From Mycobacteriales bacterium (GTDB lineage Bacteria > Actinomycetota > Actinomycetes > Mycobacteriales > SCTD01): a stretch of DNA of 64,000 nucleotides. The stretch covers positions 144,292 to 208,291 of the forward strand of contig JAUJOY010000003.1 of NCBI GenBank assembly GCA_030447385.1, read 5' to 3'. Of this stretch, positions 2,110-18,703 are shown piece by piece. The position numbers and the translations under genes are program-made. The number at the start of each line of letters is the position of its first letter. Positions within the stretch are counted from its first letter, which is position 1. The notes beneath the pieces were generated by a model. That model searched no databases and was not told where the DNA came from. It worked only from the letters and a program-made list of their open reading frames with translations.

Positions 2110-2559
2110 TCAGGCCTGCATCGAGCGCACGGCGGCCGTCAAGGCCTCGGCGTCGAGCACGTCGGCCATCAGCCCGATCTGCTCTTCCCAGACGTCGTCC
2201 GGCACCTCAGCCTTCACGGCGTCGTCAAGCACGTGGTACACCTCGAGGCCCAACTGGACCCCTGCCAAGGCACCTGCATAAGCCGGATCCCCCTTGATCA
2301 CCGTCTCGGCTGAGATCTCGGCGGCCTCCGGATCGGGGGCCCCGAGCAGCACGACCAGTGCACTGGGGTCGTTGGCTTTAGTGAGCCGGAGGATGGCCTC
2401 CTGGCTCTGCAGGTCCATGGCTCCTGACGCCGTTCAAACGAAGCACTCGGTGGCCATGAAGGCCACCTCGGCTCCGGCCGCCTTGGCGCAGGCCGCGATG
2501 GCCGTCCCCGAGATGCCGTCACGCTCTCCGAGAGCGATGACCTTCCGGTCCTGGAGCAT
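2110..2559 (-). CDS. grdA: Glycine/sarcosine/betaine reductase complex selenoprotein A (GrdA); in-frame TGA at 2434..2436 read as selenocysteine
   Basis: ATG at 2559 is preceded by GGAAGGAGG. The translation is [61 protein letters not shown]...[23 protein letters not shown]... The CFV-U-TA(A/S)GAMDL core and the AGxLAGVxLGLxVYH block match GrdA as I remember it. The ORF track only shows the part after the TGA (2110..2418). Confidence 0.88.
2386..2424 (-). promoter_or_regulatory. Candidate SECIS-type stem-loop downstream of the grdA UGA
   Basis: Starting 9 nt after the TGA: GGAG-CC-AUGG ... CCAU-C-CUCC (long-range stem). An alternative local hairpin is CC(A)GGAGG-ccau-CCUCCGG. Hand-folded only. 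Confidence 0.35.
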
Positions 2560-2562
2560 GGG

Positions 2563-2904
2563 CTAACTCACCTCCTTCCGCTGCTCGTCCAGCCACGTGT
2601 TCAGTCCTTCCGGCGACAGCGAAGGGTCGGAGAGCCGACCTACTTCCTCACCGTCACGGAACAACAAGAAGGCGGGGAGGCCCATGATGCCGAGCTCCAT
2701 GCACAGCCGACGGGCCTTGGGCGCTTCTACCTTGATCACCCTCATGTCGCCGGCGTACTTCTCGGCGAGAGCCTCGACGTGGGGGAGGAGCACCTTGCAG
2801 GGCTGACACTGGGGTCCCCACACGTCGACGAGCACGGTGCCTTCGGAGACCAGGTCGCGAAAGTCGCTTCCCGTCGCGTCCACAATGCCGGCGGAGCCGG
2901 TCAT
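2563..2904 (-). CDS. Thioredoxin-family protein (CQPC active site) embedded in the grd operon
   Basis: MTGSAGIVDATGSDFRDLV...VLVDVWGPQCQPCKVL...; 113 aa. Its ATG overlaps the grdC stop (ATGA at 2901..2904) and its stop lies 3 nt before the grdA ATG. The longer ORF-track version (to 3051) is an R/P/G-rich extension overlapping grdC. Confidence 0.85.
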   Translation of the reverse strand: MTGSAGIVDATGSDFRDLVSEGTVLVDVWGPQCQPCKVLLPHVEALAEKYAGDMRVIKVEAPKARRLCMELGIMGLPAFLLFRDGEEVGRLSDPSLSPEGLNTWLDEQRKEVS

Positions 2905-4325
2905 GCCGACACCTGATTCCGTTCCAGCATCACGCTCATCCCATCCGACAACTGGCACATCCTGCCGAGGAACAGGCTGCCCTTGGCGATCAGCATTACC
3001 CGGTCTGCCGACCCGGCCGTCAGCCGGTCCAGCGCGTGCGGAACGTAGCACAGCGACGAGGCCAGATGACCTTGCGTCGGGCTGTAGCCGGGCATCCCGC
3101 GTTCGGCGACGAAGGCGGCGATGTCGTCCTTGGCGATGTCCCCTCTGCGGGCGGCGAGGGCCGCGATCGTGCGGTAGTTCCGCTCCGGGACGTTGCCGCT
3201 GCCCTGGGGCTCGGTCAGCTCAGGGTTGTGCAGCTCCGTGGCGTAGTCGTCGACGGCCGTCATCGGCATGCCCAGGCCCGCCAGGGGCTTCACCACCAGC
3301 GCCTCCATCACCTGCGGATTGGAGCCGCCTGCGGACACCGGATGCCTGCCGACGCTGTCCAGCCGGACGCGGGGGGAGGAGCCGTCGTCGGCCTCGACGA
3401 TCATCGCCGTCCCACCGAGCAGATCTTCCAGCACGGGCATGTTGTTCTTCAGATGCCCCTGGAACTTCATCCCGAGCTTGGCCATGGAACCCCCGGCGAC
3501 GACCGCCACCCGGCCGAAGACCCCGGCCGACACGAGGCTGGCGGCGATGACCATCGCGGGAACGGGCGCGGCGCAGAAGTTCTTGACGTCGGCTCCCGAC
3601 GCCTGGCTGAGCCCGGCTGCGGCCGCGACGGCCTTGGCCATGTTGCCGCCGCCTCGCTGGTATCGGTCGCCGATGGCTTCCTCGCCGCAGCCAAGGACGT
3701 AGTCGACGGACGCCGGGTCGATGCCGGCGCTCTCGAGCAGGTGCAGCAGCGCTAACGTGGCAGTCGCCTTGGCCGCCAGATTGTCCAGCAGTACGTGGGC
3801 GCCGAGCGCCTCGTCGTCCACGTCTCCGCACCGGAAGGCGGCGCCGCCGCCGATCACGCTCAGGGCACCGGGCTCGGCCGCCGCCGCGTCCACGTCACCG
3901 CCGGCGCGCTCCACCCGTTCGAGGTCCAGCCGCTTGGCGAGCGGGTGGCGAGCCAGGTCAGCGGCGGCGCGCGCGACCGCGTCGTCGGAGAGGGTGAGCA
4001 GGTTGAAGTCGTCAACGCCCGCCAAAAGCCCGAGGAACTCCGCTTCCGGCATGATCTCGCCCGAGCGGCTCCAGCGGGAAGCACCCTCGGCTGCGGCGTC
4101 ACCCCACCAGGGACGGACCGGCAGGTCGCGCGGGTGCAGCGCGTTCACGTAGGCCTGGTTGGCGGGATAGGCGACCGCATCATCGAAGCTGCGCAACGCC
4201 GAGGTGAACTGGGCCGCCACCTCGTCGGACTTGGCCAGCTCCCGGCGGGGCTTGGAGCCATGCCGAGCCAAGGAGGGCACGTGGGCCAGCACCTGGCTGC
4301 TGCCCGAGATCACCACCTTAGGCAT
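2901..4325 (-). CDS. grdC: Glycine reductase complex protein C, beta subunit (GrdC, thiolase/KAS-like)
   Basis: MPKVVISGSSQVLAHVP..., ...FDDAVAYPANQAYV..., GCGEEAIGDRYQRGGGNMAKAVA, VKNFCAAPVPAM (acyl-Cys region), ...KGSLFLGRMCQLSDGMSVMLERN. These blocks match GrdC as I recall it. The start overlaps the grdB stop by 8 nt. Confidence 0.85.
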   Translation of the reverse strand: MPKVVISGSSQVLAHVPSLARHGSKPRRELAKSDEVAAQFTSALRSFDDAVAYPANQAYVNALHPRDLPVRPWWGDAAAEGASRWSRSGEIMPEAEFLGLLAGVDDFNLLTLSDDAVARAAADLARHPLAKRLDLERVERAGGDVDAAAAEPGALSVIGGGAAFRCGDVDDEALGAHVLLDNLAAKATATLALLHLLESAGIDPASVDYVLGCGEEAIGDRYQRGGGNMAKAVAAAAGLSQASGADVKNFCAAPVPAMVIAASLVSAGVFGRVAVVAGGSMAKLGMKFQGHLKNNMPVLEDLLGGTAMIVEADDGSSPRVRLDSVGRHPVSAGGSNPQVMEALVVKPLAGLGMPMTAVDDYATELHNPELTEPQGSGNVPERNYRTIAALAARRGDIAKDDIAAFVAERGMPGYSPTQGHLASSLCYVPHALDRLTAGSADRVMLIAKGSLFLGRMCQLSDGMSVMLERNQVSA

Positions 4326-5664
4326 GGTCCGCCCCTGCGGCTGCGGCCACCGGCATCTTCGGCGGCGTGGAGGAACGAGCCTGGCCGGCCTCGAAGACCG
4401 TGGGCTCGTCCACCGCGGTCTGCAGCGCCTCGAGGGCACAGTCGACGAGCTGGCGGCGCCACCGCTTCTCCGCGTCCGCGTCGAGCGAGGGGTCTCCCGT
4501 GGGATACGGGATGCCCCGGGTGCGCACGATGCGGGGCGCCCCCACCCGCTCGGCGATCGACACCAGATTGCAGAGCAGCGCCGTGGGGATCCCGGCCCGC
4601 TCCAACTCCTTCGCTAGCGTTGACCCGCAACGCGTTCCCGTACCTCAAGTGGCGGTCAGGATCGCGGCCCGCGCGCCGGAGCGGCGCAGGTCGGCGGCCC
4701 ACTCGACGCCGAAGCGGCGGGCATTGGCCACCGAGGTGCCGTTACCCGTGGTGACGAAGTACTCCCCGAGCAGCCCGCCGATCGCTCCCTCGGCCTCGAG
4801 CTCGCGCGCCGCGTCGAGGGGCAGGATGCGGTGAGGGTCCTCGTTCGCCCAGGCCGTCGAGAAGCCGCCGTGCACCGACATGTAGTCCCCAGGCGCCAGG
4901 GCGTCGCGGTCCTCGAGGGGGTAGCGGAGCCACTTCGTGGCACGGGCGGACTCGAGGCCGTCGGGGTTGTCGGCGACGACCAGCCCGCCTTCGGAAACGA
5001 GGGCGAGCATCACCGTGGAGGCGTCCGCAACCGGCGCCGCCGGCGTGACCCGGTCGAAGCGGGGCAGGGGGATCTCGGTCGCGGCCGCATCGCCGCCGAG
5101 CCGGGCAAGTGCCAGGTCGACGGCGCGCGTTGCCGCGTTGTCGTCGGTCACGACCGTCAGTCGCGCCGCTGCGCCGATGCGCCCGTCCTCGGCGGTCAGC
5201 GTCTCGCCGGCGAGCAGGCGCCGGATGCCGGCGGCCAGACGCTCGAGGGAGGGGGCCATCCTCCGGGCCACCTCCCCGCTGGCCACCACGGGCGCCGCGC
5301 CGGCCTCGTCCAGCCCAGGGTTGTCCTCGTGCATCGAGGCCACACTGGCCACGCCTGCCTGGTGGGCAGCGGCCACTACCCGGGCGCAGGCCAGGCCGTA
5401 GCGGCCGCTGGTGAACGCCGGACCTGCGACCACCAGGTCCGGGTCGGCCGAGCGCACCAGGCCGACGATCTCGTCGACCTTGTCCGCCGCCACGTCGTCC
5501 CCGCACCACACGGTGGCCACGATCTCGTGCTCGGGCGCCACCAGCTCGGCCAGACGCCGGCCGGGGCCTGAGGGACCGTCGAGCAGGAGCGGCCCGGTTC
5601 CCGCGGAATCCTCACCACCGACGCCGGCGAAGAACTGGTTGATGTAGTGCACGATCCTGGCCAT
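4318..5664 (-). CDS. grdB: Substrate-specific selenoprotein B subunit of a Grd-type reductase (GrdB/GrdF/GrdH family); in-frame TGA at 4645..4647 read as selenocysteine
   Basis: GGAGG lies 8 nt upstream of the ATG at 5664. The N-terminus is MARIVHYINQFFAGVGGED (typical GrdB). ORF 4645..5679 ends ...ARAAILTAT-TGA, and the same frame continues GTGTRCGSTLAKELERAGIPTALLCNLVSIAERVGAPRIV...GDPSLDADAEKRWRRQLV... (ORF 4318..4605). The TGA sits in the conserved (S/A)T-U-GT.TRCG motif. Confidence 0.88.
4617..4633 (-). promoter_or_regulatory. Candidate bacterial SECIS hairpin for the grdB UGA
   Basis: On the coding strand, 11 nt after the TGA: GCGUUG-cgggu-CAACGC. This is a 6-bp perfect stem with a 5-nt G/U-containing loop, and the spacing matches that of the E. 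coli fdhF-type element. Confidence 0.5.
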
Positions 5665-5714: not shown

Positions 5715-6968
5715 TCAGCCGGAGCGGGCGGCAATGCGGCCCCAGCCGAGCGGACTGAGAGCGCAGTAGACCACGGCAGTGGGCACCTCGAACGATGCCG
5801 CCGCCGGCGCCTTCACCAGGGCGAACTGCTCCCCGCCGTACGCCTTCTCCATCTCCGGCAGGTGCAGGACATGGTCGTAGTTGCCCGTGCTGACCATCGC
5901 CGTGGCCCGCTCGGGTGCCACGACCACCGAGGGGCCGGTGCCATCGACGCCGGCCATCTCGGCGTAGAGGCCGACGGGTTGGATGCCGAGGTCGACGAGC
6001 GCGTCCATCTTCAAGGCCACGTCGGCGTCGGCGTTACCGCCGCCCTCCTTGGTGACGATGGCGGCGTCGAAGCCGGCGGCGGCACACACCTTCGCGGCGA
6101 ACAGGGAGATCAGCTCCTTGGCGCCCTGCTCGACGGGCTCCGGACAGATGACCAGGCCCGCGAACTCCACGTCGTTGCCGTGCCGGCGCCGCAGCTCATC
6201 GACGACCGGATGGTTCTGGTGCATGAAGGTCGGGTTCTTCAGGGCCGGGTGGCCGAACTGCCCACTCACCACTGCACCGTCGTCGAGCTCACCGGGATCG
6301 AGCAGGGTGGGCAAGCCGGCGCCGAAGCTGCGCCCGTAGACGAAGACGTCCTTGAACGAGCCCTGGGTCTGCAGGTTGGTGACGACGCCGATCCGGGGCA
6401 GGTCCCCGCCCCTGGCCCCGGCTGAGGGCGAGGGAAGCTCTTCGACGGCGTCAGGGGCCGCGTCCAGGGACGCCTCTGCCAGTGCGGCCGCCAGCCGAAG
6501 CGCGCCGCGGCGCAGCGCCGCGTCCACCCGTTCCCACTGTGCTCCCTGCGCGGGGGTGAACTCGACGACCAGGTTGTGCGTCGCGCCCAGCGGCGACAGC
6601 GCCGCCGCCGGCCCGCTGAGGTCGACCAGCGCCTCTTGAGCCCGCGGCAGGAACCCTGCCGTGACCACGGTGGCGCCTCGCAACACGTGCGTCTCGCCGC
6701 TGCCCTGCGGGCGGGCGGGACCGACGAAGCCGGGAAAGATGCCACCCCCGCCGGGCCCCTTGCTCCGTGGCTCGACGGCGTCGAGGACCTTGACGATGCG
6801 GGCGCTCTGGCCGGGCGAGACCCACGAGAGCTCCACGGCGGCCAGTGCCTCGTCGGCCAGCAGACCGCGGGCCTGCTCGGCCGAGACGGTCAGCACCCCG
6901 TCGGCGAAGCTCGTCCGCTGTCCGAAGCCGACCTCCCGGACCTGATGCACCAGCCTGGTGAGCGCCAC
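5715..6968 (-). CDS. grdE: GrdE/GrdG/GrdI-family subunit of Grd-type reductase protein B (possibly the unprocessed, GrdI-like type)
   Basis: ...ARIVKVLDAVEPRSKGPGGGGIFPGFVGPARPQGSGETHVLRGATVVTAG... and ...HQNHPVVDELRRRHGNDVEFAGLVI... match GrdE blocks. The GTG at 6968 gives an N-terminus (V)ALTRLVHQVREVGFG that is colinear with clostridial MRLE.G.IFIKD.QFG. An alternative ATG lies at 7001. Confidence 0.8.
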   Translation of the reverse strand: MALTRLVHQVREVGFGQRTSFADGVLTVSAEQARGLLADEALAAVELSWVSPGQSARIVKVLDAVEPRSKGPGGGGIFPGFVGPARPQGSGETHVLRGATVVTAGFLPRAQEALVDLSGPAAALSPLGATHNLVVEFTPAQGAQWERVDAALRRGALRLAAALAEASLDAAPDAVEELPSPSAGARGGDLPRIGVVTNLQTQGSFKDVFVYGRSFGAGLPTLLDPGELDDGAVVSGQFGHPALKNPTFMHQNHPVVDELRRRHGNDVEFAGLVICPEPVEQGAKELISLFAAKVCAAAGFDAAIVTKEGGGNADADVALKMDALVDLGIQPVGLYAEMAGVDGTGPSVVVAPERATAMVSTGNYDHVLHLPEMEKAYGGEQFALVKAPAAASFEVPTAVVYCALSPLGWGRIAARSG

Positions 6969-7125
6969 GTGCGCATACTGCCACCCCGGCCCGGGTGGCA
7001 TGGTTCTCGTCGTCCCTGTCCGGTCCCTCGCTCCCCCTGGGCCACGTGCGTCACCCGAGCTCGTGACCGGTCGCCGATGACTTTCCGTACACCGTCCGGT
7101 CATAGTGTCCAACCGGGAGGAAGCC

Positions 7126-10180: not shown

Positions 10181-10362
10181 CCGCGTCCGGCCCGCTCGGC
10201 GCCCGGACCCGCGGCGCCGGACCGCCAGCCGGGTCGCCCAGCCCGGTGCTCGCCGGCGGGGGGTGGCAAGCCCGGGCCCCTGGATCCACAGGACTGCGCC
10301 GCTGCGCACGAAGCACCTTCTGCAGCGGGGACAACGAGGTACAAAGGCGCCGTGTACTTCCC

Positions 10363-13300
10363 GTGCTGAGGCTGCACCGCGCCGAGCGCGCCGACGTGCT
10401 GGCCGACGCGCTGGCGCAGGTGCTCGCGCAGCCGTTGCCGGATCCGTTCGCTGCCGAGGTCGTGGCCGTTCCCGCAAAGGGTGTCGAGCGCTGGCTGACC
10501 CAGCGGCTGTCGACGGTCCTCGGGGCTGCTTCAGGCGGGGGGGACGGAGTCGCCGGCAACCTCCGCTTCCCCAGCCCCGCACGGCTCGTCGAGGAGTGCG
10601 TCGTGGCCGGCAGCGACGTCGTCCCCGAGGACGACCCGTGGGCGCCGGCGAGGCTGCTGTGGCGACTGCTGGAGGTGATCGACGACTGCCTCGACGAGCC
10701 GTGGTGCAGCGTCCTCTCGCGGCATCTGGGTCGGGGTGAGGACGAAGCGCGTGCCGGTCGCCGCTACGCCACCGCCGAGCACCTGCGCGACCTGTTCCGC
10801 TCCTACTCCGCGCACCGCCCGGCGATGCTCGTCGACTGGGCTGCCGGCATCGACTCGGACGGCGCGGGCCGGCCGATGGCCCCGGACCTGGCCTGGCAGG
10901 CGGAGCTGTGGCGGCGGCTGCGTACGTCCCTGGACGCGCCCAGTCCGGCAGAGCGGCTGGACGAGACCTGCGCGCGCCTGCGGGACGAGCCGCACTGCAG
11001 CGACCTGCCCGAGCGGCTGTCGCTGTTCGGCGCGACGCGGCTCACGACCGAGCAGCGCGCTGTCCTGCGGGCCCTCGGGGAACACCGCGACGTGCACCTG
11101 TGGCTGCCGCACCCGAGCCCTGCGATGTGGGCGGTGCTGCAGGAGGCGCCCGCGACCTCCCGCCGCCGTCAGGACCAGACCGTGCTGAAGGTCGGCAACC
11201 CGCTGCTGGCGAGCCTTTCCCGTGACACCCGCGAGCTCCAGCTGCTGCTTGCGGGAGTGCCCGAGACGCATCACGCCGCAGCGCACGAGCCGGACACCCT
11301 GCTCGCCGCACTGCAGGCCTCGATCCGCAACGACGCCGCGGATCCCGCGGCCGCCCGGCCGGACGGCACCGTCCAGGTCCATGCCTGTCACGGGCCGCCG
11401 CGCCAGGTGGAGGTCCTGCGCGAGGCCCTGCTTCACCTGTTCCAGCAGGACGGCACCCTCGAGCCACGCGACGTCCTGGTGATGTGCCCGGACGTCGAGA
11501 CCTACGCGCCACTGATCCGCGCCGCCTTCGGTCAGCCGGGTGCGGCCCACCCGGGGCACCGCCTGCGGGTACGCCTCGCCGACCGCTCGTTGCGCCGGAC
11601 CAACCCGCTGCTGGACACCCTGGCCGGCCTGCTGGCGCTTGCCGACGGCCGCGTGACCGCCAGCGAGGTGTTGGACCTGGCGGCCAGCGCCCCCGTACGC
11701 CGGCGCTTCGGGTTCTCCGAGGACGACCTGGAGCGGCTGCAGGACTGGGCCGCCCGGGCGAATGTGCGGTGGGGGCTCGGGCGGCAGCAGCGCGAGGCGT
11801 ACGCGCTCGGCGGGGTGCCGCAGAACACCTGGGACACCGGTCTCGACCGCATCCTGCTCGGGGTCGCCGCGGACGAGAGCGAGCTCGGCTGGCTCGGCCT
11901 CGCGCTGCCGCTCGACGACGTGGACAGCAGCGACATCGACCTCACGGGTCGGGCGGCGGAGCTGGTCGACCGGCTCGACCGGGTGCTGCGCCGGCTCCAG
12001 GGCACGGAGCCGGTCTCAGGCTGGTTCGACGCGCTGAGCGAGGCGCTCGACCTGCTCACCGAGGTGCCCGAGGACGACGCCTGGCAGCTCGCTCAGGCAC
12101 GTCGTCAGCTGGCCGAGGCCGCGGAGCACGGGCCCGACGTGGTGCTGCGGCTGGCGGACGTCCGCGCGCTGCTCGCCAGCCGCCTCGCGGGGCGCCCGAC
12201 CCGCGCGAACTTCCGCACCGGCGAGCTCACCGTGTGCACGATGGTGCCGATGCGCTCGGTGCCGCATCGCGTCATCGCCCTGCTCGGGCTCGACGACGGC
12301 GTGTTCCCACGCACCGGCGGTGTGGACGGTGACGACGTCCTGCAGCGCGACCCGTGCCTCGGCGAGCGCGACCCGCGCAGCGAGGACCGCCAGCTGCTGC
12401 TCGACGCGGTGATGTCGGCGGGGAGCCACCTGCTGCTGCTCTACACCGGTGCCGACCCGGTCACCGGGGCGACCCGCCCGCCGGCGGTGCCGCTCGGCGA
12501 GCTGCTCGACGCCGTGCGCGCCGGCGTCGGGATGGACGCGATGGCGGAGGTCGTCTCCCGTCATCCGCTGCAGCCCTTCGACGCCCGCAGCTTCCGGCCC
12601 GCCGCGCCGTTCAGCTTCGACCGCGCTGCCCTGGCGGGGGCGGTCGCCTCGGCCGCACCGCGCACGCCGGAGCCGCCGTTCCTGCCGGAGCCGCTGCCCG
12701 AACGCCCTGCCGACGTCGCACTGGCCGAGCTCGTCGCGTTCCTCGTCCACCCTCCGCGAGCCTTCCTGACCCGCCGCGTCGGCGTGCACGTCCCCGACCG
12801 GGAGGCGTCGGTCGCCGATGCGCTGCGCGCCGAGCTGGACCCTCTGCAGAAGTGGGAGGTCGGGGACCGCATGCTCGCGGCCCGGCTCGCCGGGGTGGGG
12901 GTGTCCGAGTTCGTCCAGGCGGAGTGGCGACGCGGCACGCTGCCCCCCGGACCGCTCGGGATGCGCCTGCTCGACGAGCTGGAGCGGGCGGTCGAGCCGC
13001 TGGTCGCTGCCGCTGCGCAGATCCAGGTCGGGGCACCCCGCTCGCTCGACGTCGTCGTCGAGCTCGGCGCCGGCCGGCGCCTCATGGGCACGGTGAACGG
13101 GATCTACGGCGAGGTGCTGGCCGGCACGTCGTACTCCAGGTTGGCCCCCAAGCACCGCCTCTCCGCATGGGCCGGACTGCTCGCCGCCGCCTGCTGTGGA
13201 GCGGACGCGCCCGCGACAGCGGTGACCACCGGTCGCGGGCCGCACAAGAGGCCGGTGTGGCGCTCGGTCCTCCGCGTGCCGCCGGCGCCCTTCGACGTCC

Positions 13301-13617
13301 TGCGCGATCTCGTCGCGCTGTACGACGAGGGCATGCGCGAGCCGCTGCCGGTAGCTCCCGGCGCCTCGCACGAGTACGCCACGCGGCGGCAGCGGGGGAA
13401 CAGCGCTCCGGAGGCGCTGGAGGCCGCGAGCAAGGAGTGGGACTCGCGGTACGGCGACAGCACGGACCGCCACCTGGCCTATGTGCACGGCGCCGGTGCG
13501 TCCTTCTGCGGCCTCACCGCGGCTGGCGCCCCCGGGGAGGAGACGACCCGCTTCGGTGCGCTTGCGCGGCGGCTGTGGGGACCCCTGCTGGCCGTCGAGG
13601 TCCTGGGCGCGCCATGA
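10363..13617 (+). CDS. recC: Exodeoxyribonuclease V gamma subunit (RecC)
   Basis: ~1084 aa. The N-terminus (V)LRLHRAERADVLADALAQVL is typical of RecC. It is followed by recB and recD with overlapping stop/start codons. The start is uncertain (the ORF opens at 10246). Confidence 0.85.
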   Translation: MLRLHRAERADVLADALAQVLAQPLPDPFAAEVVAVPAKGVERWLTQRLSTVLGAASGGGDGVAGNLRFPSPARLVEECVVAGSDVVPEDDPWAPARLLWRLLEVIDDCLDEPWCSVLSRHLGRGEDEARAGRRYATAEHLRDLFRSYSAHRPAMLVDWAAGIDSDGAGRPMAPDLAWQAELWRRLRTSLDAPSPAERLDETCARLRDEPHCSDLPERLSLFGATRLTTEQRAVLRALGEHRDVHLWLPHPSPAMWAVLQEAPATSRRRQDQTVLKVGNPLLASLSRDTRELQLLLAGVPETHHAAAHEPDTLLAALQASIRNDAADPAAARPDGTVQVHACHGPPRQVEVLREALLHLFQQDGTLEPRDVLVMCPDVETYAPLIRAAFGQPGAAHPGHRLRVRLADRSLRRTNPLLDTLAGLLALADGRVTASEVLDLAASAPVRRRFGFSEDDLERLQDWAARANVRWGLGRQQREAYALGGVPQNTWDTGLDRILLGVAADESELGWLGLALPLDDVDSSDIDLTGRAAELVDRLDRVLRRLQGTEPVSGWFDALSEALDLLTEVPEDDAWQLAQARRQLAEAAEHGPDVVLRLADVRALLASRLAGRPTRANFRTGELTVCTMVPMRSVPHRVIALLGLDDGVFPRTGGVDGDDVLQRDPCLGERDPRSEDRQLLLDAVMSAGSHLLLLYTGADPVTGATRPPAVPLGELLDAVRAGVGMDAMAEVVSRHPLQPFDARSFRPAAPFSFDRAALAGAVASAAPRTPEPPFLPEPLPERPADVALAELVAFLVHPPRAFLTRRVGVHVPDREASVADALRAELDPLQKWEVGDRMLAARLAGVGVSEFVQAEWRRGTLPPGPLGMRLLDELERAVEPLVAAAAQIQVGAPRSLDVVVELGAGRRLMGTVNGIYGEVLAGTSYSRLAPKHRLSAWAGLLAAACCGADAPATAVTTGRGPHKRPVWRSVLRVPPAPFDVLRDLVALYDEGMREPLPVAPGASHEYATRRQRGNSAPEALEAASKEWDSRYGDSTDRHLAYVHGAGASFCGLTAAGAPGEETTRFGALARRLWGPLLAVEVLGAP

Positions 13618-16600
13618 GCTTCGACCTCTACGGCGAGCTGCCGCGGGGCACGTCGGTCCTCGAGGCCAGCGCCGGCACGGGCAAGACCTGGACGATCGCG
13701 GCGCTCGCCACGCGCTACGTCGCCGAAGGTGTGGCCGAGCTGTCGGACCTGATGCTCGTCACGTTCGGGCGGGCCGCCACGCAGGAGCTGCGCGAGCGCG
13801 TACGCGAGCGGCTCGTCTCCACCGTGCGCGGGCTCGGACGCGACGGCGACGACCCGCTGGTGAAGCACCTGTCAAGGGCGGGGCCGGAGGAGGTGCAGCT
13901 GCGGCGGCAGCGCCTTCTCCGGGCGCTGTCGCAGTTCGATGCCGCCACCATCGCGACGACGCACAGCTTCTGCGAGCAAGTCCTGAAGGGGCTCGGCTTC
14001 GCCGGGAACGCCGATCCCGGGGCCACCCTCGTCGAGTCGGTCGACGACCTGCTGCGTGAGGTGGTCGACGACCTCTATCTGCGCAAGTTCGCCGTGCACA
14101 CGGCTGCGCCGCCGGCGATCACCGCGGGCGAAGCGAGAGAGGCCGCGCGGGCGGCGATGCGGGACCGCCAGGCCCGGCTCGAGCCGGCATCGGCCGACCC
14201 GGCGTCCGGGCCCGGTCAGCGGGTGGGGATCGCCCGCGCGGCGTGCGTCGAGCTCGCCCGGCGCAAGAGCGCGGCGGGCATCCGGGACTTCGACGACCTG
14301 CTGTTCCTGCTGCGCGACGTGCTGGTCGACCCGGCCTCCGGGCAGGCGGCCTGCGCTCGGCTGCGGGCGCGCTACCGCGTGGTGCTCGTCGACGAGTTCC
14401 AGGACACCGACCCGGTGCAGTGGGAGATCCTGCGCGTTGCGTTCCACGGCCACGCCGCGCTGGTCCTGATCGGCGACCCCAAGCAGGCGATCTACGCCTT
14501 CCGGGGAGCGGAGGTGCTCAGCTACCTGTCCGCCGTGCGCGAGGCCGACCGGCACGAGACGCTCGCCACCAACTGGCGCAGCGATGACGGACTGCTGCGC
14601 GCCCTGGACCACCTCTACGGCGGCGCTTCACTCGGCCACCGGCAGATCGTCGTCCGTCCGGTCGTGGCAGCGCACGCCGCCCGGCGTCTCGGTGATGGTG
14701 CTCCGCTGCGCCTGCGGGTGCACCCCCGCACGGGTTCCGGGCCGCTCGGGAAGAGCGGTTTCCCGGCGGTCGCGGCACTGCGCGAGACGGTTGCCGCTGA
14801 CGTGGCCGCCGACGTCGTACGCCTCCTGCACAGCGGCACCTCGCTCCGTCACCAGGGCGGGTCCCGGCCGGTACGTCCAGGCGACGTCGCGGTGCTCGTA
14901 CGCCGGCACGTGCAGGCGGCGGCCGTGCAGGCGGCGCTGGACCGAGCCGACGTGCCCTCGGTGATGTCGAGCAGCACGAGTGTCTACGCCACCCCCAGCG
15001 CGCGCGACTGGCTGTGGCTGCTGCACGCCCTCGAGCAGCCGCACCGAGCGGCACGGGTACGCCTTGCGGCGCTGACGCCGCTGCTCGGCTGGACCGCGCC
15101 ACGCCTCGACGCGGCGGGGGACTCCGGCACGGACGAGGTGGGGGCCCTGCTGCGCGAGGCGGCGCAGCTGTTCGAGCAGGCGGGCCTGGCCGCCGTGTTC
15201 GAGCGGTTCTCGGCGCGTACCCGCCTCGACAGCCGGCTGCTCGCTCAGGAGGGAGGCGAGCGGCGGCTGACCGACCTGCGACACCTCGCGCAGTCGCTGA
15301 ACCGCGCTGCGGTCGAGGGCTCGCTCGGGCTCGCGGCGCTGGTCAGCTGGCTGTCCGAGCGCGTGGAGGACCCGGAGGCGGCAAGCCTGTCCGACCGCAG
15401 CCGGCGGCTGGAGAGCGACGCTGCGGCGGTGCAGGTCGTCACGGTGCACGCCAGCAAGGGGCTGGAGTTCCCGATCGTCTACGTGCCCTACGGGTGGGAC
15501 GGCGCGAAGAACCCGTCCTCGACGACCCTGCGGCTCCACGACCCCGACGGCGCACGGGTGCTGGACATCGGCGGCAAGGACGGGCCCGGGTGGGCGCAGC
15601 GCAAGAAGACGGCTGACGTCGAGGACGACGGCGAGGAGCTGCGCCTGCTCTACGTCGCACTGACCCGGGCGCAGTGCCAGGTCGTCCTGTCCTGGGCACC
15701 GGGAGCGGTCACCGCCGGAGCCCCGCTGCACCGGCTGCTGCTGGGGCGCACGCAGGGCGAGCCCGCCCCGTCCGCGCGCGCGGCCGTTCCCGAGGACGCA
15801 GCTGCGCTCACCCGGCTCGCCGCGTGGGGGTGGCCGGAGGAGATCTCGGTGGAGCCGGTCGGAGCCGTCGCTGCGGTTCGCTGGCAGCCGGACCAGGAGG
15901 AGCCGGGGTCGCTGGCGGCGGCGCGATTCGACCGGACGCTCGACATGGCCTGGCGGCGCACGTCCTACTCGGCCCTCACCTCGACGGTGCACGACGCTCC
16001 GCGCGTCGGCAGCGAGCCCGAGGAGCCAGAGACGACCGACGAGCCGGCGTCCTCCTTCTCCCTGGCAGAGGACCTGACGCCGGCCGGGCCGCCGTCCCCG
16101 ATGAACGGCCTGGCCGGCGGCGCCGCCTTCGGCACGCTCGTCCACGGCGTGCTGGAGGCCGTCGACACCGCCGCGGACGACCTGCCCGCGGAGCTCCTCG
16201 GGCGATGCCGTGCCGCGGTGGCCTCCCGGCTGTCGTCGGCGGAGCCGGCCGCACTGGCCGCTGCGCTGCTCGCGGTGCTGCGGACCCCGCTGGGGTTCGG
16301 CACGCTCGCAGAGGTCGCCCCGGCCGACCGGCTGGTGGAGATGGACTTCGAGCTGCCGCTCGCCGGGGGCGAGGACCCCACGAGCTCACCGGTCCTGCTG
16401 CACGACATCGCCGGACTGCTGCGGCGCCACCTGCCGGCGGACGACCTCCTCCTGCCCTACGCCGACCTGCTGCAGACGGTGGACGCGCTCCCGCTGCGCG
16501 GCTACCTGTCGGGCAGCATCGACGCGGTGCTGCGGCTGCCGGGACCGGCCTACCTCGTCGTGGACTACAAGACCAACCGGCTCGGGCGGGGCGACCTGAC

Positions 16601-16868
16601 CGCGCTGCACTACACGCGCGAGGCGATGGCCGCGGAGATGCTGCGCGCGCACTACCCCTTGCAGGCGCTGCTCTACTGCGTCGCCCTGCACCGGTTCCTG
16701 CGGTGGCGCGAGCCCGGCTACGACCCGGCGGTGCACCTGGCAGGCGCGCAGTACCTGTTCCTGCGGGGGATGGTCGGGCCGGCCACCCCGACCGGCTGCG
16801 GAGTCTTCGACTGGAGGGTGCCGGCCGAGCTCGTGGTGGCCCTGTCCGACCTGCTGGCCGGGTCATGA
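13614..16868 (+). CDS. recB: Exodeoxyribonuclease V beta subunit (RecB), UvrD-like helicase plus PD-(D/E)XK nuclease
   Basis: MSFDLYGELPRGTSVLEASAGTGKTWTIAAL (Walker A), VLVDEFQDTD, and the C-terminal nuclease motif GSIDAVLRL...LVVDYKTN. The ATG overlaps the recC stop (ATGA). The ORF-track frame is open from 12354, but that part is R/P-rich shadow. Confidence 0.9.
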   Translation: MSFDLYGELPRGTSVLEASAGTGKTWTIAALATRYVAEGVAELSDLMLVTFGRAATQELRERVRERLVSTVRGLGRDGDDPLVKHLSRAGPEEVQLRRQRLLRALSQFDAATIATTHSFCEQVLKGLGFAGNADPGATLVESVDDLLREVVDDLYLRKFAVHTAAPPAITAGEAREAARAAMRDRQARLEPASADPASGPGQRVGIARAACVELARRKSAAGIRDFDDLLFLLRDVLVDPASGQAACARLRARYRVVLVDEFQDTDPVQWEILRVAFHGHAALVLIGDPKQAIYAFRGAEVLSYLSAVREADRHETLATNWRSDDGLLRALDHLYGGASLGHRQIVVRPVVAAHAARRLGDGAPLRLRVHPRTGSGPLGKSGFPAVAALRETVAADVAADVVRLLHSGTSLRHQGGSRPVRPGDVAVLVRRHVQAAAVQAALDRADVPSVMSSSTSVYATPSARDWLWLLHALEQPHRAARVRLAALTPLLGWTAPRLDAAGDSGTDEVGALLREAAQLFEQAGLAAVFERFSARTRLDSRLLAQEGGERRLTDLRHLAQSLNRAAVEGSLGLAALVSWLSERVEDPEAASLSDRSRRLESDAAAVQVVTVHASKGLEFPIVYVPYGWDGAKNPSSTTLRLHDPDGARVLDIGGKDGPGWAQRKKTADVEDDGEELRLLYVALTRAQCQVVLSWAPGAVTAGAPLHRLLLGRTQGEPAPSARAAVPEDAAALTRLAAWGWPEEISVEPVGAVAAVRWQPDQEEPGSLAAARFDRTLDMAWRRTSYSALTSTVHDAPRVGSEPEEPETTDEPASSFSLAEDLTPAGPPSPMNGLAGGAAFGTLVHGVLEAVDTAADDLPAELLGRCRAAVASRLSSAEPAALAAALLAVLRTPLGFGTLAEVAPADRLVEMDFELPLAGGEDPTSSPVLLHDIAGLLRRHLPADDLLLPYADLLQTVDALPLRGYLSGSIDAVLRLPGPAYLVVDYKTNRLGRGDLTALHYTREAMAAEMLRAHYPLQALLYCVALHRFLRWREPGYDPAVHLAGAQYLFLRGMVGPATPTGCGVFDWRVPAELVVALSDLLAGS

Positions 16869-18703
16869 GGGCGCTGCTCGCCTCCGGGCTGCTGGCCGAC
16901 TTCCACGACGCCGGGGTCCTGGCCGCGGCCGATGTCCACGTCGCCCGGCGGCTCGGGGCCCTGGCCCGCGAGGGCGCCGAGGAGGTGCTGCTCGCGGTCG
17001 CCCTGGCCGTGCGCGCCGTGCGCCTCGGGTCGACGTGCCTGGAGCTCGACCGGATGCGCCAGGTCGCGGTGGACGAGGAGCACGATGTCGACGTCTCGAC
17101 CCTGCCGTGGCCGGAGCCCGACGCCCTGCAGAGGGCGCTGCGCAGCAGCCCGCTGGTCACCGGCGCCGCAGGGGCGACCCTCCGGCCGCTGCGGCTCGCG
17201 GAGACTGACGGGGGCCCGCTGCTCTACCTCGACCGCTACTGGCGACAGGAGCAGTCCGTACGCCGGCAGCTCGACGACCGCGCGCTGACCCGGCCCCCGG
17301 CCGATCTCGAGGCGGTGCGGCGGCGGATCGCGGAGCTGTTCCCGGACCCGTCCGCGCCGGACCGTCAGCGCATCGCTGTGGCGCTCGCGGCGACGAGGTG
17401 GACCACGATCCTCGCGGGCGGGCCCGGCACGGGCAAGACGACCACGGTCGGGCGGGTGCTCGCCCTGCTCGACCGGCCGGGGCTGCGGGTGGCGCTGGCG
17501 GCTCCGACCGGCAAGGCCGCCGCTCGGCTGCAGGAGTCCGTGCGGGAGCAGGCACCCGGTCTGGGGCTGCCGGCGGAGCTCACCGCGACGACGCTGCACC
17601 GGCTCCTCGGCTGGCGGGCCGACAGCAGGACCCGGTTCCGCCACGACAGCGCCAACCGACTCCCGTACGACGTCGTCGTGGTCGACGAGACCTCGATGGT
17701 GTCGCTGACGATGATGGCCCGGCTGCTCGACGCCGTGCGGCCGGACACGCGGCTGATCCTCGTGGGCGACCCCGACCAGCTGACGTCGGTGGATGCCGGA
17801 GCCGTTCTCGCCGACCTGGTGGCGCGGCCGGTCCGGGCCGCCCCCGATGCGGCGCTCGCGCAGCTGGTGGGAGCGGATCTGGCCGGCGCGGACGACGCCG
17901 CCGAGACCGGCCTGGACCCGCAGGAGCGGTCGCGGCTGGCGAACGGCGTCGTACGGCTGACCCGTGGTCGCCGCTTCGGCGGGACGATCGCGCGGCTCGC
18001 CGTGGCGGTGCGCCTCGGCGACGCGGACCTCGCGCTGGAGCTGCTGCGGAGCGGGGCGTCGGACGTCTCCTTCGTCGAGCCGGGCGACGTCGAGGCGGTG
18101 CGTCAGGACGTCGTGTCCTGCGGGCAGGGGGTGACGGAGGCGGCGGCCGGCGGCCGGGTCGAGCTGGCGCTCGCGCGGCTGGAGGAGCACCGCCTGCTGT
18201 GCGCCCACCGGCGCGGCCCCTACGGCGTGACCGCATGGGACCGGCGGGCCGGGGAGTGGGTGGCCACCGCCCTCCGGCGGGCTCCGGAGCAGGCGCGCTG
18301 GTACGCCGGTCAGCCGCTGCTCGTGACGAAGAACGACCACGAGGCCCGGATCTACAACGGTGACACGGGAGTCGTCGTGGAGACCGGCGGGGGCGACCTG
18401 GTCGCGGCGTTCTCGCGGGGCGCCACACCCGTGCTCCTCCCGGTGGGGCGGCTCTCCGACGTCCAGACGGTCTACGCGATGACGATCCACCGGAGCCAGG
18501 GCAGTCAGTACGAGACGGTGTCGGTCGTGCTCCCGCCTCCGACGTCGTCACTGCTCACGCGGGAGCTGCTCTACACCGCGATCACCCGTGCCCGCAGGCA
18601 TGTTCGCGTGGTCGGCACCGCCGAGACCGTACGCGCCGCGATCGACCGGCAGGTGCTGCGGGCCAGCGGCTTGCGGCGGGTGGTGAGCGGAGCGGACGCC
18701 TGA
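16865..18703 (+). CDS. recD: Exodeoxyribonuclease V alpha subunit (RecD)
   Basis: MRALLASGLLADFHDAGVL..., GGPGTGKTTTV (Walker A), VVVDETSMV, YAMTIHRSQGSQY. The ATG overlaps the recB stop (ATGA). Confidence 0.9.
   Translation: MRALLASGLLADFHDAGVLAAADVHVARRLGALAREGAEEVLLAVALAVRAVRLGSTCLELDRMRQVAVDEEHDVDVSTLPWPEPDALQRALRSSPLVTGAAGATLRPLRLAETDGGPLLYLDRYWRQEQSVRRQLDDRALTRPPADLEAVRRRIAELFPDPSAPDRQRIAVALAATRWTTILAGGPGTGKTTTVGRVLALLDRPGLRVALAAPTGKAAARLQESVREQAPGLGLPAELTATTLHRLLGWRADSRTRFRHDSANRLPYDVVVVDETSMVSLTMMARLLDAVRPDTRLILVGDPDQLTSVDAGAVLADLVARPVRAAPDAALAQLVGADLAGADDAAETGLDPQERSRLANGVVRLTRGRRFGGTIARLAVAVRLGDADLALELLRSGASDVSFVEPGDVEAVRQDVVSCGQGVTEAAAGGRVELALARLEEHRLLCAHRRGPYGVTAWDRRAGEWVATALRRAPEQARWYAGQPLLVTKNDHEARIYNGDTGVVVETGGGDLVAAFSRGATPVLLPVGRLSDVQTVYAMTIHRSQGSQYETVSVVLPPPTSSLLTRELLYTAITRARRHVRVVGTAETVRAAIDRQVLRASGLRRVVSGADA

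Follow-up and report, generated by a model that had tools for sequence, protein, structure and literature searches.

The locus described here raises the question of how an in-frame UGA is marked for reading as selenocysteine (Sec). The UGA lies in grdA, on the minus strand of a 64,000-nucleotide stretch of contig JAUJOY010000003.1 (hereafter the window), and an initial annotation made from the letters alone had placed a possible Sec insertion sequence (SECIS) next to it, within 2386..2436. A hairpin (H1) is indeed found there, but the best-conserved RNA features of the gene, a long-range helix (LR) and a distal hairpin (H2), fall outside those coordinates. Both LR and H2 show selection acting on the RNA itself. 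We regard it as an evenly balanced proposition that the grdA recoding signal is a split SECIS, in which LR would replace the contiguous stem and H2 would offer the SelB-binding loop. Positions are counted from the U of the UGA as +1, and a window coordinate is 2437 minus the position (minus strand). The features concerned, with the evidence for each, are the following.

2110..2559, minus strand: grdA (selenoprotein A), 149 codons including Sec, stop at 2112..2110; translation, Pfam PF04723, NCBIfam NF040748
2434..2436, minus strand: UGA codon 42, almost certainly read as Sec (CFV-U-TA); TGA conservation, coding-type conservation on both sides
2408..2421, minus strand: 5′ strand of LR, +16..+29, GCCAUGGACCUGCA; duplex energy, pair probabilities, RNAalifold
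2264..2278, minus strand: 3′ strand of LR, +159..+173, UGCAGGUGCCUUGGC, encoding Y-A-G-A-L-A with rare codons; codon constraint, pairing
2245..2262, minus strand: distal hairpin H2, +175..+192, GGGGUCC AGUU GGGCCUC, loop at 2252..2255; pairing, rare codons
2383..2407, minus strand: local hairpin H1, +30..+54, GAGCC-A-GGAGG CCAU CCUCC GGCUC; minimum free energy (MFE) fold, orthologue pairing

Two sets of relatives were compared. For the Acidimicrobiales-type set, 80 of the 332 relatives found were kept, mostly from Acidimicrobiales metagenome-assembled genomes and with 64-97% protein identity; the parsed sequences also number 80, i.e., 79 loci plus the window. The clostridial-type set holds 80 metagenome loci kept from at least 418 relatives, with 79 distinct sequences and a GC content of 45%.

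The in-frame UGA of grdA

The gene is almost certainly grdA, encoding selenoprotein A of a glycine/sarcosine/betaine-type reductase, with the UGA at 2436..2434 decoded as Sec. The frame given in the initial annotation was recovered at the same minus-strand coordinates: it opens with an ATG at 2559..2557 and runs through 41 sense codons to the TGA at 2436..2434, then through 107 more to a stop at 2112..2110. The two halves, which had been called GrdA-like, are parts of one protein. Pfam GRDA (PF04723) matches the 149-aa product end to end (E=3.6e-56, 189.5 bits against a cutoff of 22), with product residues 2-147 aligned to profile positions 1-146 of 147 when U is written as C. The NCBIfam equivalog NF040748 (reduct_selen_A) matches at 192 bits against a cutoff of 130 (residues 2-148 on positions 1-147 of 151). 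As the initial annotation had also observed, the CxxU redox motif (ECFV-TGA-TA) spans the TGA, which stands at the Sec position. A Shine-Dalgarno (SD)-like AAGGAGG lies 5′ of the ATG, within the 3′ end of the thioredoxin gene.

A TGA occupies the Sec codon in 80/80 Acidimicrobiales-type and 80/80 clostridial-type sequences (160/160 examined), which chance falls far short of explaining. The 38 codons 5′ of the TGA contain no in-frame stop in any of the 80 Acidimicrobiales-type sequences, and column identity at codon positions 1/2/3 is 0.89/0.90/0.72 in the N-terminal part vs. 0.87/0.92/0.71 in the C-terminal part. Database relatives are nearly all fragments of 102-105 aa whose first residue is the Met six codons past the TGA, because gene callers stop at the TGA; that gene callers truncate GrdA is the practical lesson of this codon. 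Cys forms were sought among the clostridial full-length database proteins and none was found; all carry W at the site, which is a TGA read with code 4. Membership in grdA and the UGA as a Sec codon are already known apart from the host lineage, and GrdA was among the first bacterial selenoproteins described. We found no paper linking Acidimicrobiia to glycine reductase.

It is scarcely credible that the TGA is a true stop and that the gene is broken or makes only 41-aa and/or 102-aa products. The short fragment alone is annotated in almost all relatives and no Sec machinery is visible in the window. However, the TGA stands at the exact catalytic Sec position in every orthologue, the codons upstream of it are conserved as coding, a 102-aa product would lack the CxxU redox centre, and the grdB gene of the operon likewise carries a conserved TGA with a SECIS. 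The Sec machinery (selA, selB, selC and selD) is moreover reported in another Acidimicrobiia order (bioRxiv 10.64898/2026.04.03.716425). The initial annotation had allowed for the case that only the 102-aa fragment is made; this case is not supported, since the fragment is called only where gene callers stop at the TGA.

Paired elements downstream of the UGA

Ensemble pair probabilities were obtained by folding -30..+303 in the 80 Acidimicrobiales-type sequences. Pairing was counted on alignment A2 (78 distinct orthologues) for H1 and on alignment A3 (79 distinct) for H2 and LR, with two kinds of control: slid controls, in which the partners of a helix are slid along the alignment, and shuffled columns. 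In synonymous recoding, the same peptide was written with other codons and the fold energies were compared with the native one (200 trials for LR in the window). The genes of the window served as the codon-usage reference.

In the window, LR consists of 13 pairs with one bulge and one 1x1 loop (-22.8 kcal/mol). It starts 12 nt past the UGA, and its 5′ strand holds the internal AUG (+19..+21) used by gene callers. H2 lies one base 3′ of LR and has 7 bp and the 4-nt loop AGUU. The mean pair probability over the 80 sequences is 0.62-0.84 for LR and 0.93-0.96 for H2, and in the 79 distinct sequences LR is paired in 86.7% of cells and H2 in 100%. The structure of LR, H1 and H2 together is 90.2% paired vs. 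at most 49.7% for slid controls. The window sequence from +1 to +197 is more stable than expected (z=-3.24, 1/200 shuffles), with all three helices in both the MFE and the centroid structure. RNAalifold on a 206-column alignment keeps LR and H2.

Codon usage tabulated along grdA shows frozen synonymous sites that cluster about 175 nt past the TGA. Leu at codon +61 is TTG in 80/80 sequences, although TTG makes up 2% of the Leu codons in the genes of the window; Leu +63 is always CTC (80/80) and Gly +58 always GGG (66/66). At Ala +53, 78/80 sequences use GCA, which makes up 5% of Ala codons in the window genes, and position +171 is G in 79/80. LR accounts for the rare GCA (A162-U26), the near-invariant G171 (paired with C18) and the GCC at codon +5. 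The three variable pairs of H2 are all compatible with pairing (G-U/A-U; G-C/G-U/A-U; C-G/U-G/U-A), and Thr-ACC at codon +59 always occurs together with Gly-GGT at +62. When the 3′ strand of LR is recoded synonymously, the energy goes from -21.1 (native) to -15.3 kcal/mol (mean z=-1.9, 56/80 sequences at <=0.05), and none of the 200 recodings in the window is as stable as the native strand. For H2 the values are -14.6 and -8.7 kcal/mol (mean z=-2.5, 69/80 at <=0.05).

H2 could also be read as a DNA palindrome or protein operator (GGCCCA-GT-TGGGCC). This reading is disfavoured because a pair is kept only as a U-G wobble in 26/79 sequences, and as G-U in 65. A search for H2-like motifs found none in the window besides that of grdA, with a pattern too short to inform. 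Rfam at its gathering threshold gave no match in the window, and at E values up to 10 it gave only SECIS_4, at grdB. Under the same E limit, grdA has no Rfam match in either phylum, clostridial loci included.

LR and H2 recur in most clostridial-type grdA, in a register slightly shifted from that of the Acidimicrobiales-type. There LR (CAAUGGACCUG/CAGGUCCAUUG) pairs +17..+27 with +161..+171 at a mean probability of 0.39-0.72 over the 79 distinct sequences, and H2 pairs +176..+181 with +187..+192 at a probability of about 0.5. These helices are paired in 84.5% of cells vs. at most 51% for slid controls, with synonymous-recoding z values of -1.6 for H2 and -1.5 for LR. In H2, the codon before Leu varies (CAG in 32, TCG in 19, CCG in 9) and ends in G in 62/79, and U185 is invariant. 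Thus, the clostridial loop is AGUUA or C-GUU-G and always presents G-U-U. G183-U184-U185 is kept in genes where A- or U-ending codons are otherwise preferred.

Most clostridial-type grdA have no conserved local hairpin in +1..+60. The exception is a subgroup, the nine sequences sharing the peptide MDLE[I/V]Q (L105, L116, L121, L132, L133, L135, L140, L148 and L154), which carry the hairpin UGGAUC-UGGA-GAUCCA at +20..+35 with its loop at +26..+29 and G-G in the loop; L121 has the variant GGACC-UGGA-GGUCC. This local hairpin is a textbook bacterial SECIS (bSECIS). The distal element, by the criterion of H2 plus LR, is present in 0/9 of these sequences, and both codons and residues are relaxed at their H2 site (I/V-E/A-L-G-L-A). 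The same 5′ strand can thus take either a nearby or a distant partner. Across the whole clostridial set, the rank correlation between the energy of the local hairpin and that of LR plus H2 is not significant (rho=0.14). In three further sequences that lack the standard distal element (L102, L117 and L097), +12..+32 pairs with other distal partners (+86..+108 or +147..+159) at high predicted probability, which hints at further variants. One metagenomic contig carries two tandem grdA copies, each with the TGA (L138:1612-1817 and L138:2112-2317).

A few further homologues add to this picture. The distant TGA form L082 (74% nucleotide identity to its nearest relative) keeps H2 (-14.5) and LR (-22.8). 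In its LR, A29-U159 is replaced by C29-G159 and a new pair C30-G158 is gained, compensatory changes that arise from Tyr-to-Trp and Gln-to-Ser replacements. Where H1 would be, it has a weaker and different local fold (-8.4). A homologue with GGA (Gly) at the Sec codon (L083, YCFVG), known from a single short contig, lacks all three helices. Papers of 2005-2006 knew of no Cys homologues of GrdA; this Gly form and the Cys form L081 discussed below, both metagenomic, contrast with that.

The initial annotation had drawn two alternative folds, 9 nt 3′ of the UGA, as possible SECIS elements. The first (GGAG-CC-AUGG...CCAU-C-CUCC) can be drawn, yet over the 78 orthologues it pairs no better than shuffled columns (82.1% in both) and shows no covariation. 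One of its pairs is unpaired in 53/78 sequences, and the fold competes with both better-supported helices. The second, extended by three pairs, is H1, the MFE hairpin of the 71 nt after the TGA. This one is a real and mostly conserved hairpin with covariation, but it is weak or absent in several orthologues and in clostridial grdA.

H1 has a 4-nt loop, 5 bp above a bulge and 10 bp in all. The 71-nt stretch alone is not more stable than its shuffles (z=-1.38, 18/200), and synonymous recoding of the window peptide reaches the energy of H1 (-17.3 kcal/mol) in 9% of trials; the mean recoding z over all sequences is -1.3. The peptide QSQEAILRL encodes much of H1 whatever the codons, and synonymous support for it is weak. 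Since single-sequence stability is unremarkable, the evidence beyond chance comes from the orthologues, in which H1 is paired in 87.8% of cells vs. at most 56% for slid controls. Covariation occurs at two pairs (36-60 and 46-51 of alignment A2): the outermost pair is G-C in 37 sequences and C-G in 22, and the top pair is G-C in 44, A-U in 11, G-U in 5, C-G in 2 and U-A in 1. H1 is weak or absent in the TGA-bearing L003, L016, L058, L062, L063 and L077 and in the distant L082, it has no equivalent in the 79 clostridial-type sequences, and RNAalifold drops it from the 206-column alignment. Its loop starts 37 nt past the UGA after a spacer of 26 nt. In the window the loop is CCAU, whose first two positions lack a G; some relatives have CGAU or AGUU, and CCAU is equally common.

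Two other candidates near the UGA were rejected. An extended lower stem of H1 (+16..+26 with +59..+69) is 78% paired, shows no covariation, is poor in the window and is superseded by LR. On a 90-nt alignment, all that RNAalifold returned was the uninformative 5-bp pairing CC.UGG/CCA.GG, which is invariant. On the other side of the UGA, 13-29 nt 5′ of it, a predicted hairpin GUGGCC-UUCAU-GGCCAC lies at 2450..2466 (minus strand); across the 80 relatives its pairs have a mean probability of about 0.47.

A proposed split SECIS and its alternatives

A split SECIS would be built as follows. Pairing of +16..+29 with +159..+173 would form the 13-bp LR 12 nt past the UGA. Because LR begins at +16 and H2 follows the last pair of LR by one base, the base of H2 would sit beside +16, and its loop would be separated from the UGA in space by the 12-nt spacer plus 7 bp, roughly the distance at which a canonical SECIS holds its loop. 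H2 would be bound by the complex of SelB, GTP and Sec-tRNA(Sec), and Sec would be delivered once a ribosome holding the UGA in its A site is up against LR. The 5′ strand of LR runs on into H1, which in the Acidimicrobiales-type lineage would probably stack on LR and stabilise it. We infer the binding of SelB to H2, the stacking geometry and the need for LR. The arrangement would resemble that of grdB in the same operon: LR starts at +16 and the grdB SECIS stem at +15/+16, and the grdB element has an 11-nt spacer and 6-7 bp before its loop, compared with the 12-nt spacer and 7 bp for H2. LR and H2 are better candidates than H1 for the core of the recoding signal. More tentatively, grdA mRNAs of at least two phyla (Actinomycetota and Bacillota) may use a discontinuous SECIS, with a hairpin about 175 nt past the UGA that is docked by an LR of 11-13 bp.

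The bSECIS consensus, i.e., the model of Zhang and Gladyshev as summarised in PMC13188914, has a loop of 3-9 nt on a stem of 4-16 bp, a G in the first two loop positions that is mostly followed by G or U, and 16-37 nt between the UGA and the loop. Both H1 and H2 conform in loop and stem size. H2 conforms to the G rule, with its AGUU loop and the G-U dinucleotide that SelB-binding loops typically have in 79/79 distinct sequences, and the window H1 does not; H1 lies at the limit of the distance rule and H2 outside it. Some bacterial selenoprotein genes are known not to fit the consensus (PMC13188914), and in the papers covered only local hairpins are drawn for grdA (PMC1242214). We found no long-range or distal grdA SECIS in the literature, of which most of the 1990s work on grd in subscription journals lay outside our coverage.

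Compared with clostridial GrdA (C. sticklandii, E. acidaminophilum and C. litorale grdAB), the protein belongs to the same family, shares CFVU-TA(A/S)GAMDL with a UGA-encoded Sec and the same length from U to GVQLGL, and has the same partners, grdB(UGA), grdC, grdE and thioredoxin; LR and H2 are also common to most clostridial-type sequences. It differs in its high-GC Acidimicrobiales host, in a protein identity of about 50-55%, in the extra hairpin H1 and in the gene order grdE-grdB-grdC-trx-grdA, with no grdD found in the 64 kb. Like canonical bacterial SECIS elements (e.g., E. coli fdhF), the structure lies in the coding region 3′ of the UGA with its first helix 11-12 nt past it, H2 has a 4-nt apical loop with G-U on a 7-bp stem, and H1 has a bulge-plus-tetraloop shape. 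Unlike them, H2 is 178 nt from the UGA and the element is discontinuous, enclosing about 130 nt of coding sequence. SECIS_4 of grdB (RF01990) belongs to the same operon, has the same SelB to serve and has an equal distance from the UGA to the start of its stem; the short, G-rich loop closed by C-G is a further point of likeness. It is, in contrast, a simple contiguous 38-nt element, and it has no match anywhere in grdA. A Sec-specifying hairpin far from the UGA in sequence is also found in the 3′ untranslated region SECIS of archaea and eukaryotes. Those elements lie outside the open reading frame (ORF), are built differently, with kink-turn or GAA_A motifs, and depend on SBP2 or other factors, whereas the grdA element is inside the ORF and would be tethered beside the UGA by base pairing. 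In plant RNA viruses (the readthrough elements of Tombusviridae and the -1 frameshift of barley yellow dwarf virus), a local stimulator needs distal pairing for recoding. Plant virus recoding involves eukaryotic ribosomes, kilobase distances and no dedicated elongation factor, and the likeness is one of analogy only.

Several points weigh against a split SECIS. The chain distance from the UGA to the H2 loop is 178 nt, compared with 16-37 nt in the rule, and we know of no bacterial SECIS shown to work via a distal docked hairpin. Because the A-M-D-L peptide fixes the 5′ strand of LR, the helix shows sparse covariation. Any ribosome translating through it would melt LR, and the signal would then re-form only once that ribosome is past +192. 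LR also buries the internal AUG, which is a Sec-independent reason for it to exist. In the clostridial set, a loosely defined local hairpin goes with the lack of a distal element to a modest degree (Fisher p=0.025, with no correction for phylogeny), and 11/79 sequences fit neither criterion; three (L131, L147 and L149) have LR, and in others +13..+32 pairs with another distal partner. The Cys homologue L081 (TGC, 277-279) keeps LR and H2 while its H1 is degraded (CAA, AAG, GCC), the pattern expected if H1 were Sec-specific and LR and H2 had another role; L081 comes from one metagenomic contig of 1.2 kb and may reflect a recent conversion or an error. Finally, Pfam scans of about 45 ORFs in the window revealed no selA, selB or selD, and there is no tRNA in its 64 kb, nor any tRNA-Sec in 80 related loci.

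One rival reading takes H1 alone as the SECIS, a canonical local hairpin at the far end of the allowed spacing, with LR and H2 serving something else. H1 is the dominant local structure, with the orthologue pairing and the exchanges at two pairs described above. Its loop falls inside the bSECIS range, its 5′ bulge, 5 bp and 4-nt loop recall the minimal E. coli fdhF element, and, as the main point in its favour, it is the one helix degraded in the only Cys homologue. We nevertheless consider this reading unlikely: seven TGA-bearing sequences (six plus L082) have a weak H1 or none, clostridial-type grdA has no equivalent, the window loop has no G where one is expected, synonymous recoding and RNAalifold give it little, and its spacer exceeds by 15 nt that of the grdB SECIS, which has the same SelB to serve. 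The patchy occurrence of H1 counts equally against LR and H1 as one coaxial stack, in which SelB would sit on the H1 loop, +159..+173 would supply the 3′ strand of the lower stem and H2 would be only a junction clamp. From +16 to +40 the 5′ strand is interrupted only at U20 (unpaired) and A35 (bulged), the start of LR coincides with that of SECIS stems, and the three helices coexist in the MFE and centroid structures. The H1 loop would, however, be about 23 bp from the ribosome vs. about 7 bp for grdB, and clostridial grdA has LR and H2 with nothing atop LR, and we find such a stack very unlikely.

LR and H2 might instead have no part in Sec insertion. They could hide the internal SD-like GGAG and AUG (+13..+21), so that no truncated protein is made, or act in mRNA stability or processing, with H1 or a weak local fold as the SECIS. 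LR does cover the AUG picked by every gene caller, and the Cys homologue retains both helices. Of the 17 distinct H2 bases of the Acidimicrobiales-type set, 16 have no other occurrence in the window, so that no second target points to a trans-acting factor; this result is uninformative. A role of this kind is distinctly unlikely, since it would leave unexplained the invariant G-U-U loop of H2 across two phyla, the clostridial sequences with a local SECIS that lose LR and H2 yet keep the same AUG, and the Gly homologue without either helix. It would also leave most clostridial grdA without a recognisable SECIS.

For bacteria, a single hairpin 16-37 nt past the UGA is the accepted rule, and it is built into prediction tools. 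If the split SECIS is correct, it would explain the lack of a convincing local SECIS in most clostridial-type grdA, and selenoprotein finders based on the SECIS would overlook such genes or assign them wrongly. To express clostridial or actinobacterial GrdA in another host, one would have to keep the first ~200 nt past the UGA intact, synonymous positions included. SelB delivery would then owe its geometry to the tertiary arrangement of the RNA and not to distance along the chain. Since some grdA genes naturally have a local hairpin and others the distal element, the split SECIS can be tested directly. The grdA signal as a distal SECIS is potentially significant, whereas the selenoprotein gene itself is ordinary.

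The grd operon and neighbouring genes

grdA is the last gene of an operon on the minus strand in the order grdE-grdB(UGA)-grdC-trx-grdA. Its other members and the SECIS of grdB are the following.

5715..7001 (start approximate), minus strand: grdE/grdG-like component B proprotein; Pfam PF09338, E=1.6e-101
4318..5664, minus strand: grdB-type selenoprotein B with an in-frame TGA at 4647..4645; Pfam PF07355, TIGR01918 at 406 bits
4607..4644, minus strand: canonical local SECIS of grdB, its stem beginning at +15/+16 and its GGG loop at +22..+24; Rfam RF01990 SECIS_4
2901..4325, minus strand: grdC (component C subunit beta); NCBIfam NF040746 at 542.5 bits, cutoff 450
2563..2904, minus strand: thioredoxin (CQPC); Pfam PF00085, best NCBIfam match clostridial TrxA, below cutoff

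GrdB and GrdE match at the level of the subfamily model only and score under the NCBIfam cutoffs specific for glycine, sarcosine and betaine. Pfam scans found no grdD (component C alpha) in the window. The TGA of grdB is at the matching codon in all 69 sources in which the motif was found (the window and 68 loci). The window element of grdB aligns full-length to RF01990 from just past the UGA at 19.5 bits (E=0.65), against a gathering score of 38; drift of the high-GC sequence away from the clostridial consensus accounts for the low score. The same element scores 39.3 bits in the related locus L021 and 44-61 bits in clostridial loci. grdC and trx share an ATGA start/stop overlap (2901..2904) and grdB and grdC overlap by 8 nt (4318..4325); these overlaps point to translational coupling of the operon's genes.

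About 2 kb downstream of grdA in two related loci, ARAGORN made 96-nt calls (L015:8323-8418 as tRNA-Thr(cgt) and L021:8013-8108 as tRNA-???). Rfam gives no tRNA there, and the calls are probably false positives, not tRNA-Sec. Near another grd locus, Rfam matches the actinobacterial small RNA Ms_AS-4 at L025:10611-10692 on the minus strand (91.7 bits). Elsewhere in the window, and unrelated to grdA, recC-, recB- and recD-like genes stand in a row on the plus strand (10246..18703), with the domains Exonuc_V_gamma/RecC_C, UvrD-helicase plus PD-(D/E)XK, and RecD_N plus AAA_30, respectively.

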